Source: Raillietiella orientalis (taxonomy: Eukaryota). From it: a stretch of 64,000 bases of DNA. Shown here in pieces: positions 28,729 through 31,403 of this stretch. The position numbers and the translations under genes were made by a program. A model generated the notes under the pieces. The model was given only the letters and a program-made list of their open reading frames with translations, made no database searches and was not told the DNA's origin. The stretch spans positions 558,001 through 622,000 of the forward strand of contig JAYWIR010000022.1 in NCBI GenBank assembly GCA_036172245.1. The letters are read 5' to 3'. Within the stretch, counting starts at the first letter, position 1. Every line of letters starts with the position of its first letter.

Positions 28729-28857
28729 GGAAACCCCACCACGCTTTACTCAAATGCACATCATGGACTTGTGAGGTTCCACAAAATGCGATTTGCATCC
28801 TGACTGGAAAGTGCCCCTTTTTTTCCTTCCAAATCCACGATTAATTTAAAGTAGACT

Positions 28858-29759
28858 ATGAGTGATTCTCTTTCCTCCAGAACATTTGAAAGTAAAGTTG
28901 CACCGTTAAAATCTGGGCCATCTTATGAGAAAACGGTTGTCAGCTTTTATAATGCAACCCATAAACATGTTGATGTTCTCTGGATTGATTATAAGGGACA
29001 GCAAGTGAAGTACAAGGTACAGATGGAGCTGTAAAAGTCTATAAAATAGCTAGTAAATCAGAATTTAAAAATGCGAAATAAACAGTGAACACATTGCTAG
29101 TAAGAGGCACATAATAGTTGGTTCACCATAGAGTTTTTGAAAAAATGTGGTTTTTTCAACAGTACAATACCTGTAATATGAAATGTAGTGATTTGTCGGT
29201 TTGGATGTAAATGCAGATGCTTGTTAACAAGTAAACTATCAATTAATGTGAATGAAAGCTTCAACTTTTGCTTCACCATAAAATTTCAGCTGAAATTTTC
29301 CAAGTTTCCTGATCATATCAACTCTGCAAGAAGACTTTTCCCCATTAATTGTGACAATCCCTTGATTTCAGACAGTAGCACCTGAAAATTATGTTCATCT
29401 TAAAACGTATACTACACATCCTTGGGTGTTTAGAGATTCAAAAACCAGAGATAAGTTACTGGCAGACCTGGAGGAAGTCTTTTTTCCTCCTTCAATGAAG
29501 GTCATCATTATCCAGTGTTGATGAAGTTGTTATTGCTTTTAATAGGTTACTGACAAATTGTGGAACCCAGTGATAATCACCTCACCTGTGTACACCTTGA
29601 AAGAAAGATGTCTTCAGGTAATGAAGTATCAGAATGATTTTTCACTGTATGTTGTAAACTTAGGTGCTCAGATTGTGTTTGCATGATAAAAATGATAGTT
29701 ACCAGCTGCAGCTTCCTTCGAATCTGATTCAAGAAATACTTGATGGACCATCTGTTTGA
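28858..29759 (+). CDS. VHL: von Hippel-Lindau tumour suppressor homologue (E3 ligase substrate receptor), 151 aa. Exons 28858-29016, 29372-29500, 29546-29617, 29664-29759.
   Basis: Spliced translation: ..PLKSGPSYEKTVVSFYNATHKHVDVLWIDYKGQQVKYK|TVAPENYVHLKTYTTHPWVFRDSKTRDKLLADLEEVFFPPSMK|..ITSPVYTLKERCLQ|VLRLCL..YQLQLPSNLIQEI. Contains beta-domain motifs (W.dy.G, TY..HPW.FRD) and the BC-box PVYTLKERCLQV. All introns are GT-AG, phase 0. Confidence 0.93.
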
Positions 29760-29843
29760 TCCTGGAATGGATGGGTGGTTGGGACGGAACTGACAAAAAT
29801 AAGCAATTGCTACATATAAATAAATTGATGATATTTTTCAGCT

Positions 29844-31403
29844 ATGAAGATTGAAGAAGTAAAGAGCACTACAAAAGCTCAACGTATTTCTGCCCATAGT
29901 CATGTGAAGGGCTTAGGTCTTGATGAAAATGGAACAGCTCTATCGAGTGCAGCTGGTTTAGTTGGTCAGGAGGCATGTCGTGAAGCTGCTGGGCTGATAG
30001 TGGATCTCATCCAAATGAAGAAAATGGCTGGACGGGCTGTGCTGTTGGCAGGACCTCCAGGCACCGGCAAGACAGCTATTGCTCTTGCCATATCTCAGGA
30101 ACTAGGATCAAAGGTCCATTGGGAGGGAAGGAAAAGCAATGAAAGTTGTGTGGCAGGTGCCTTTCTGCCCAATGGTGGGCTCTGAGGTGTTTAGTTCAGA
30201 AATAAAAAAGACGGAAGTACTAATGGAAAACTTCCGGCGTGCTATTGGTCTTCGTATTAGAGAAAACAAAGAAGTGTATGAGGGTGAGGTCACGGAATTA
30301 ACTCCTGTGGAGAGTGAGAACCCAATGGGTGGATATGGAAAGACCATCAGTCATGTGAAAATTGGACTGCGTACAGCCAAGGGCACTAAACAACTTAAAC
30401 TTGATCCTTCCATCTATGAGTCTTTGCAAAAGGAAAGGGTAGAAATTGGTGATGTCATTTATATTGAAGCTAACAGTGGTGCTGTGAAACGTCAAGGGCG
30501 TAGTGATGCATATGCTACAGAGTTTGATTTGGAGGTGAGTGCTTGCACCTTGAGGTATACTGAGTTGTTGGCCATAACTCCTCTTAGGCAGAAGAGTATG
30601 TCCCACTCCCCAAAGGAGATGTGCACAAAAGCAAGGAGATAATTCAAGATGTAACATTGCATGACTTGGATGTAGCCAATGCTAAACCACAAGGTGGCCA
30701 GGATATTCTCAGCATGCTCGGTCAATTAATGAAACCCAAGAAAACTGAGATCACTGGTAGGAAACTTTGTATATGCTTGGTTTCATTATTTGAAATACAG
30801 ATAAGTTGCGCAAGGAAATCAACAAGGTTGTCAACAAATACATTGACCAAGGAATAGCTGAGCTTGTTCCTGGAGTGTTGTTTGTGGATGAGGTGCATAT
30901 GCTGGATATAGAATGCTTCACTTATCTCCACCGAGCTCTGGAAAGTACCATTGCGCCTATTGTTATCTTGGCAACCAATCGTGGGCGGTGTGCTGTGCGG
31001 GGAGCAGAAGATGTAGTGGCACCTCATGGCATTCCCTTGGATCTACTGGATCGACTGCTCATTGTGCGCACCCTGCCTTATTCCAAAATTGAGATGGCAC
31101 AGATCATACGCATTCGTGCAAAGACAGAGAGCATTCAGGTAGATGAAGAGGCATTGCAGTTGCTAGCAGACATTGGGGCTCGAGCTACGCTGAGGTGAGG
31201 GATAGTGGTGATCATACAGGGATTACAATCCGGTGCACACTAGGTATGCAGTGCAGCTCTTGACTCCTGCTAGTGTATCTGCCAGAATCAACAGCCACCA
31301 AGTGATTATGCCAGAGGACATCAGCGAAGTGAATTCCCTATTCTATGATGCTAAGACATCAGCAAAGATTTTGGCGCGAGAAGATGAAAAGTACATGCAT
31401 TAA
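29844..31403 (+). CDS. RUVBL1: RuvB-like 1 (pontin/TIP49a) AAA+ ATPase, 456 aa. Exons 29844-30113, 30157-30534, 30588-30756, 30801-31194, 31244-31403.
   Basis: [24 protein letters not shown] start, Walker A GPPGTGKT, Walker [15 protein letters not shown] and [11 protein letters not shown]. Four GT-AG introns of 43, 53, 44 and 49 nt. The spliced CDS is 1371 nt. Confidence 0.98.

Follow-up and report, generated by a model that had tools for sequence, protein, structure and literature searches.

How do two genes that lie head to tail on the same strand, with only 84 nucleotides (nt) between the stop codon of one and the start codon of the other, each give rise to an mRNA? The question is posed by a VHL gene and a RUVBL1 (pontin) gene in a stretch of 64,000 nt from contig JAYWIR010000022.1 (positions 558,001 to 622,000), which is referred to here in its full length as the window and supplies all coordinates used below. 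The sequence of the locus favours a single transcription unit for VHL and RUVBL1, and the likeliest mechanism appears to be a two-gene operon without intercistronic DNA that would be resolved by spliced-leader (SL) trans-splicing, a preference that we hold tentatively and at somewhat less than an even chance. The original prediction had envisaged a shared unit in which a poly(A) site and a splice acceptor collide. This part gained support from a single CpG-rich upstream region, a CpG-decay domain, the geometry of the AATAAA hexamer and the acceptor, and the burden of upstream AUGs.

Exon models of both genes were built by homology and define the following coding features.

28858-29016, + strand: VHL coding exon 1 (Pfam VHL beta domain, E-value 0.0037; 17.7 bits against a curated cut-off of 21; alignment)
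29372-29500, + strand: VHL coding exon 2 (Pfam VHL beta domain, E-value 5.2e-8)
29546-29625, + strand: VHL coding exon 3, with the PVYTLKERCLQV stretch (gene model; alignment with other VHLs)
29672-29759, + strand: VHL coding exon 4, with the stop codon TGA at 29757-59 (gene model; C-terminus aligning with VHLs of about 150 amino acids)
29844-31403, + strand: RUVBL1 coding region (Pfam TIP49 and TIP49_C; tblastn against mollusc RUVBL1; open-frame model)
29844-30113, 30157-30534, 30588-30756, 30801-31194 and 31244-31403, + strand: RUVBL1 exons (homology model)

The VHL model is complete at 151 amino acids (aa), with introns of 355, 45 and 46 nt, and aligns end to end with animal VHL proteins of about 150 aa (identities of 43% with the centipede Strigamia and 37% with a VHL-like protein from a shark). 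It presents the arrangement of the aligned VHLs, a beta domain followed by the PVYTLKERCLQV stretch, which is conserved among them and which we take to be the elongin-binding BC box. Because of the end-to-end alignment and the conservation of PVYTLKERCLQV, the stop codon at 29757 is the natural end of VHL. Exon 2 returned 31 relatives with E-values up to 0.001. The RUVBL1 model is also complete (456 aa, with a canonical N-terminus and introns of 43, 53, 44 and 49 nt) and matches animal RUVBL1 at 82-83% identity over 455 residues, corresponding to a full-length TIP49 protein with P-loop domain and AAA-lid; TIP49 and TIP49_C (Pfam PF06068 and PF17856) were detected in the open frames 29844-30113, 30160-30534 and 30797-31195, with E-values of 3e-32 to 2e-48. 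The confirmed donors within the two genes are degenerate (GTCATC, GTCCAT, GTATCA). Judged by homology, the identities of VHL (Pfam PF01847) and RUVBL1 hold. The positions first proposed for the VHL stop codon (TGA, 29757-59), the AATAAA hexamer (29819-24), the acceptor AG (29840-41), the RUVBL1 ATG (29844-46) and the upstream GTGAGG (28771-76) proved to be correct, as did the motif aaagtag followed by actATG at the VHL start, where the ATG occupies 28858-60 and the TAG ends at 28854, 3 nt ahead of it. For the VHL end the stop codon stood, but the start of the last exon had to be moved to 29672, following a last intron at 29626-29671.

The signals that could separate the two messages are concentrated in the spacer.

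29760-29843, + strand: spacer of 84 nt, containing CTGAC at 29790-94, three ATGs (29767, 29771 and 29828) and two weak GT sites (29775 and 29778)
29819-29824, + strand: AATAAA, the sole canonical poly(A) hexamer between the VHL stop codon and the RUVBL1 ATG (sequence)
29834-29841, + strand: TTTTTCAG 3' splice site with AG at 29840-41, its junction 2 nt before the RUVBL1 ATG (sequence)

There is essentially no intercistronic DNA at this locus, because only 17 nt separate the end of the VHL poly(A) signal from the RUVBL1 splice junction defined by TTTTTCAG. The CA at 29839-40, within TCAG, is a typical cleavage dinucleotide situated about 0-2 nt from the junction after 29841, and the predicted VHL cleavage site and the RUVBL1 splice junction would hence coincide within 1-2 nt. 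The spacer ATGs at 29767, 29771 and 29828 also constrain the RUVBL1 leader, since an unspliced leader would have to be no longer than 13 nt in order not to carry upstream AUGs; splicing at 29841 removes all three. A CTGAC sequence, which we take to resemble the branch-site consensus, lies 48 nt before the RUVBL1-proximal AG, and a similar CTGAC is located 51 nt before the VHL-proximal AG.

Upstream of VHL, two further features bear on how either leader might be formed.

28622-28771, + strand: 50-codon open frame with in-frame ATGs at 28622, 28727, 28754 and 28763 (sequence)
28771-28854, + strand: candidate 84-nt intron, with donor GTGAGG at 28771, CTGAC at 28800-04 and acceptor TAG ending at 28854 (sequence)

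The 50-codon frame is probably a non-coding leader or outron. No Pfam family was detected in the open frame 28244-28771 that encloses it, and the 50-codon frame itself had no usable match in the protein Atlas. A candidate cis-spliced leader exon ending at 28770 would contain three to four in-frame AUGs, their number being set by the transcription start. Were 28770 spliced to 28855, the upstream frame would stop at the TGA at 28859-61, which overlaps the VHL ATG (ATGA, 28858-61); were it spliced to 29842, the frame would stop at 29852-54, 8 nt past the RUVBL1 ATG. In both cases the main open reading frame (ORF) would lie behind a long overlapping upstream ORF, which argues against a retained cis leader and in favour of removal of the whole upstream region. 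The same in-frame AUGs, which run into both start codons, speak against the leader shared from donor 28771 in the manner of ChAT/VAChT that had been put forward for this locus. Splicing at both acceptors would discard all the spacer ATGs together with the four in-frame ATGs upstream of VHL. Both gene starts present the sequence CTATGA (in the regions 28858-61 and 29842-54), and any upstream exon in the right phase would run into a TGA there; this shared sequence may be a coincidence.

Loss of CpG accompanied by gain of TpG and CpA is the signature of methylation-driven CpG decay, and in genomes with mosaic gene-body methylation the promoters of broadly expressed genes stay CpG-rich. Two features of the locus are defined in these terms.

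28200-28800, + strand: CpG-replete, GC-richer stretch upstream of VHL, a candidate shared promoter with leader or outron (CpG positions)
28855-31403: continuous CpG-depleted, TpG- and CpA-enriched domain over both genes (observed/expected ratio, o/e, of 0.35 for CpG, 1.43 for TpG and 1.32 for CpA)

The CpG o/e of the whole window is 0.93 (median 0.91), and values as low as that of the 28855-31403 block fall in the lowest 0.4% of segments of 2549 nt. Only 6 of 127 one-kilobase (kb) segments lie below 0.5, four of them tiling 29001-31500 and the other two at 10501-12000, and the ratio amounts to 0.98 in a TFDP gene, 0.87 in a PRRT3-like gene and 0.75 and 0.82 in the 2.5-kb flanks of the VHL-RUVBL1 pair. 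The depletion sets in abruptly at about 28800, ends at about 31450 and is unbroken at the junction of the two genes (o/e 0.39 over 29650-29990). The sole CpG-dense stretch of the locus is 28200-28750, with around 15 CpGs in 28525-28640 and an o/e of 0.90 over 28200-28854; through VHL there is one CpG per 100-300 nt, with a mild rise only at 29719-30065, and the CpG profile of the locus revealed no CpG-rich island at the RUVBL1 start. Given a CpG-rich region only upstream of VHL and one decay domain downstream, the simplest reading is thus one promoter and one transcribed, methylated body. We regard the pattern as suggestive, not decisive, of a single promoter upstream of VHL with a methylated body extending across both genes. 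Taken at face value, the decay signature implies germline gene-body methylation.

Two gene styles lie next to each other in the window, the TFDP and PRRT3-like genes being GC-richer and CpG-replete, and VHL and RUVBL1 having more AT, few CpGs and introns of 43-53 nt, a contrast consistent with mosaic germline methylation of housekeeping genes. The second CpG-depleted, AT-rich block (10501-12000) has a CpG o/e of 0.24-0.28, a CpA ratio of 1.48 and a GC content of 33-35%. No Pfam family was detected in its open frames of at least 75 aa; the block could represent a methylated transposon or a gene that went unrecognised.

The arrangement of the pair is non-random. Pfam scans of 273 open frames, together with Rfam and the protein Atlas, identified about five recognisable genes in the 64 kb, and the closest recognised neighbours of VHL-RUVBL1 are about 5 kb away on the upstream side and 16 kb away on the downstream side. 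In a window this gene-poor, with neighbours this distant, general compaction therefore does not account for the 84-nt gap. Base rates for the acceptor signals were obtained from the 1864 ATGs on both strands of the window. An AG ending 1-4 nt before the ATG is found in 24% of them and a YAG in 10%, and the strong form seen at RUVBL1 (YAG with at least 6 of 8 pyrimidines upstream) in 2.6%, while the composite AATAAA-(8-30 nt)-YAG-(1-4 nt)-ATG occurs just twice on the two strands, at 29819 and at 52115. A YAG located 2-3 nt ahead of the first in-frame ATG was present in all three readable gene starts (VHL, RUVBL1 and the PRRT3-like gene, where the ATG is preceded by tctttag followed by gat), a count made post hoc. 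The TFDP start codon could not be placed, and hence provided no fourth case of an acceptor before an ATG.

From the observed genes, their spacing, the processing signals and the CpG-decay domain we infer co-transcription, trans-splicing and mutual exclusivity of the two messages. One promoter upstream of VHL would drive a VHL-RUVBL1 transcript, and addition of a spliced leader to the TTTTTCAG acceptor (after 29841) would yield the RUVBL1 mRNA; a leader might also be joined at the TAG acceptor (after 28854) to yield the VHL mRNA. VHL 3'-end formation (cleavage and polyadenylation) and RUVBL1 trans-splicing would then compete for the same few nucleotides, and each transcript would become either a VHL mRNA or a RUVBL1 mRNA, but not both. 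The SL operon is favoured because it alone accounts for the tight spacing, the geometry of poly(A) signal and acceptor, the acceptors before both ATGs, the AUG-laden upstream region and the CpG pattern.

Two genes of the window were used to place it phylogenetically. In a quick maximum-likelihood tree of RUVBL1, the window falls inside an arthropod clade with a Shimodaira-Hasegawa-like approximate likelihood-ratio test (SH-aLRT) support of 89 and outside a well-supported lophotrochozoan clade, its terminal branch measuring 0.29 versus a median of 0.09. A quick tree of TFDP locates it in a pancrustacean clade (SH-aLRT 98), with the row for the window filling 34% of the columns and a branch of 1.12. 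The branch of the window is long in both trees, as are those of its TFDP neighbours, and the arthropod placement may be an artefact of attraction. Identity to collection proteins reaches at most 94% for RUVBL1 exon 2, at most 83% for full-length RUVBL1 and at most 80% for the DP region of TFDP (with molluscs on top), and for VHL exon 2 it is about 50-55%, the matches being proteins of lobster, shark, centipede and tick. The arthropod, perhaps pancrustacean, placement suggested by these single-gene trees is therefore treated as a lead only. An arthropod (possibly pancrustacean) SL operon without intercistronic DNA, in which competition between VHL polyadenylation and RUVBL1 trans-splicing would set the ratio of the two mRNAs, is in our estimate an unlikely combination. 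The literature search returned no report of crustacean operons, and the acoel, Macrostomum, amphipod and chaetognath genomes, as published, do not match the features of the window. A passage on the amphipod Parhyale gives introns of 5.4 kb on average (PMC5111886), unlike those of the window.

Among documented operons, the closest parallels are provided by tunicates and nematodes. According to a passage of Satou et al. 2006 (PMC1488885), most operons of Ciona intestinalis have no intercistronic DNA, the downstream acceptor AG directly preceding the upstream poly(A) tail, and expression from such operons "may be mutually exclusive". The VHL-RUVBL1 pair resembles them in comprising same-strand genes well under 100 nt apart, with the downstream AG where the upstream mRNA should end and an ATG close behind, and its 84 nt from stop to ATG correspond to the very short gap of an SL operon lacking an intercistronic region. 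It differs in having a canonical AATAAA, which 16 of the 18 Ciona operons displayed in that passage lack within 40 nt of the poly(A) site of the upstream gene; moreover, SL use is documented in Ciona and only proposed for this locus, and neither protein similarity nor the trees point to a tunicate. The SL1-type operons of Caenorhabditis elegans, a minor class also described in that source, combine little or no intercistronic DNA with an upstream AATAAA just before the trans-splice site and with competing processing. Since it includes an AATAAA, the VHL-RUVBL1 geometry, which fits the Ciona description, matches the SL1 type more closely still. The window is not of nematode origin, however: its RUVBL1 shares about 82-83% identity with proteins of arthropods and molluscs and falls among the arthropods in the tree, and the internal introns lack the nematode UUUUCAG consensus.

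Closely spaced operonic genes also occur in non-compact, repeat-rich genomes, a likeness that extends to the flatworm Macrostomum lignano, in which operon spacing peaks at about 100 bp in a repeat-rich genome (PMC8629364), and to the chaetognath Paraspadella gotoi, with operons annotated at less than 250 bp (PMC12460157). The trans-acceptor motif of Macrostomum, [T/C]TNCAG, fits TTTTTCAG. Both comparisons diverge in the methylation implied here by the CpG decay and in the trees, which point to arthropods: sections of the corresponding sources describe gene-body methylation as lost in the chaetognath (PMC12460157) and flatworms as lacking DNMT1 and DNMT3 (PMC5111886).

Other explanations dispense with trans-splicing. 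RUVBL1 could have a small promoter of its own in the last VHL exon or in the spacer, the two genes being merely tightly packed, overlapping tandem neighbours; this is possible, if unlikely. Tandem genes that overlap or sit close together are frequent in arthropods, Drosophila among them, and the trees give a hint of an arthropod, but the window is not compact and nothing in it forces an 84-nt spacing. Such a promoter could give either a very short unspliced leader or a short exon ending at 29774, followed by a 67-nt intron in the 5' untranslated region (29775-29841) that would hold the VHL poly(A) signal. The acceptor has a possible partner in the GT at 29775, GTGGTT being allowed by the degeneracy of the confirmed donors, and splicing of 29774 to 29842 would bring the 29771 ATG into the RUVBL1 reading frame and render it harmless, although at 67 nt the intron would be longer than the other short introns, which form a class of 43-53 nt. 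The mild rise in CpG density at 29719-30065 is compatible with a promoter here, yet it does not amount to a CpG-rich, unmethylated-looking island near the RUVBL1 start (o/e 0.39 over 29650-29990); in a mosaically methylated genome, a housekeeping promoter would not usually lack one. A TATA-like TATAAATA at 29815-22, overlapped by the AATAAA, and a TCAGCT that we liken to an arthropod initiator were considered as the core of this promoter and rejected; with the consensus positions of both elements as we assume them, the leader would be at most 4 nt long or transcription would start inside the ATG.

A leader shared in cis, from one promoter and a non-coding first exon ending at 28770 that is spliced alternatively to 28855 or 29842, needs no SL machinery and would suit a lineage not known to trans-splice. 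The VHL mRNA would be polyadenylated near 29840, and the RUVBL1 mRNA would drop the whole VHL coding region as an intron of 1071 nt. The good GTGAGG donor at 28771, the two acceptors lying 3 and 2 nt before the VHL and RUVBL1 ATGs, the single CpG-rich upstream region and the one CpG-decay domain all agree with this scheme. The cholinergic locus, where VAChT reportedly lies nested in the first ChAT intron with a shared 5' exon, and the insect Su(var)3-9/eIF2-gamma locus, said likewise to use a shared leader, offer comparable cases of one promoter serving two unrelated proteins, with a candidate common non-coding exon, alternative acceptors and a nested gene here. What sets VHL-RUVBL1 apart from ChAT/VAChT is a candidate leader filled with AUGs and a nested gene that has introns and a poly(A) signal abutting the acceptor of its partner. 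The three to four in-frame ATGs of the exon, which leave both main frames behind a long overlapping upstream ORF, and an upstream frame belonging to no recognisable family make the shared cis leader quite improbable. We consider a dicistronic VHL-RUVBL1 mRNA, with RUVBL1 translated through reinitiation, leaky scanning or internal entry, to be very improbable. The very short spacing and the single CpG-decay domain would be expected of it, and such mRNAs are known in arthropods, the Drosophila Adh/Adhr message reportedly being a precedent; but a canonical AATAAA stands between the two reading frames, a first ORF of 151 codons would make reinitiation inefficient, the strong acceptor exactly before the RUVBL1 ATG would be left unexplained, and RUVBL1 is an abundant housekeeping protein.

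Several observations nonetheless weigh against an operon resolved by trans-splicing. A small CpG-poor core promoter at RUVBL1 would leave no CpG trace. An unspliced VHL leader starting at about 28790-28850 is free of AUGs and VHL alone therefore requires no splicing, while the VHL acceptor is weak and may be a chance occurrence. Translation of the PRRT3-like gene may begin instead at a later ATG that immediately precedes a hydrophobic, signal-like segment. Several classic SL lineages presumably lack gene-body methylation, unlike the genome implied here. The Rfam search recovered no SL RNA family in the window (it returned a U4 above the gathering score and a weak U2-like match), although 64 kb is too small for this to mean much; a 25-nt part of the SL of the flatworm Macrostomum is absent from the window, and a copepod SL primer is absent from 80 RUVBL1 metagenome loci. 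Animals that lack SL trans-splicing can have introns of this size as well. A passage of PMC7854359 reports median introns of 57 bp in Capitella and 67 bp in Strigamia and no trans-splicing in the annelid studied, "similar to other annelids", and is silent on Strigamia in this respect. Since short introns exist elsewhere without trans-splicing, those of VHL and RUVBL1 are no argument for it. In arthropods, a passage of PMC7986045 describes SL trans-splicing as reported only in copepods and amphipods, and operons as not reported there.

Searches of proteins and metagenomes found no adjacency or fusion of VHL and RUVBL1 elsewhere, which also weighs against the operon. A VHL-like stretch was found in none of the 80 RUVBL1-bearing metagenome and metatranscriptome loci kept (best E-value 0.38), which are mostly short mRNA-like contigs and constitute weak evidence, and none of them is closer than 81% to the RUVBL1 of the window. 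A metagenome scan with VHL exon 1 yielded 519 pattern matches, none of them confirmed, and a word search with exon 2 gave 26 candidates, none of which was scored. Of the 31 VHL relatives recovered from 1.84 billion representatives, none has the size and layout of a VHL-TIP49 fusion, and PF01847 is carried by none of the 120 RUVBL1 relatives among the matches listed. The literature search on VHL in spliced-leader operons returned nothing relevant, its sole match being unrelated C. elegans work.

The original prediction had further suggested that the unit couples two opposing hypoxia regulators. Pontin is indeed described as a HIF-1 co-activator in the mammalian and fly literature covered by a passage of PMC10001186, as had been claimed. 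The proposed coupling draws solely on that literature, no conserved linkage having been found, and is unsupported speculation. The VHL-pontin pairing could be functional; at present these are just two adjacent housekeeping genes. If confirmed, the SL operon would constitute a clean case without intercistronic DNA outside tunicates and nematodes, possibly in a lineage lacking recorded operons. Its presence in a non-compact, mosaic-methylated genome would mean that compaction is not needed, which bears on why animal operons arise. Finally, a single CpG-decay domain spanning two genes suggests a cheap, sequence-only flag for co-transcribed pairs in unannotated invertebrate genomes.

The scans with Pfam, Rfam and the protein Atlas identified these additional features in the window.

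about 2182-2412: last exon of CFAP300 (Pfam, Rfam and Atlas scans)
about 21200-23600: TFDP gene (Pfam, Rfam and Atlas scans)
47338-47473, + strand: U4 small nuclear RNA (snRNA) gene (Rfam, 60.9 bits)
57390-59864, - strand: PRRT3-like gene, single exon (protein Atlas)

TFDP, VHL, RUVBL1 and the PRRT3-like gene all lie within 40 kb of the window. Human TFDP2, VHL, RUVBL1 and PRRT3 are, as we presume, all on chromosome 3, with VHL and PRRT3 at 3p25.3; if these human positions are right, the clustering of the four genes would indicate an old conserved linkage. The PRRT3-like open frame comprises 825 codons and was assigned by the protein Atlas to the PRRT3/PRRT4 family with a score of 0.96, with no Pfam match. 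About 2 kb separate the U4 snRNA gene from a U2-like match on the - strand that stayed below threshold (49579-49739, 30.7 bits, E-value 0.025). Both are located inside a 26-kb stretch (34-60 kb) with a GC content of 54-65%, in whose scanned open frames no Pfam family was detected. Homopolymer runs of at least 9 nt are unusually frequent, with 20 G/C runs and 41 A/T runs in the 64 kb, among them those at 27894 (G17), 21142 (G14), 22561 (T24) and 63968 (T26). The G-runs at 27894 and 21142 are situated upstream of genes, and each is followed by a GATAAA-like sequence.

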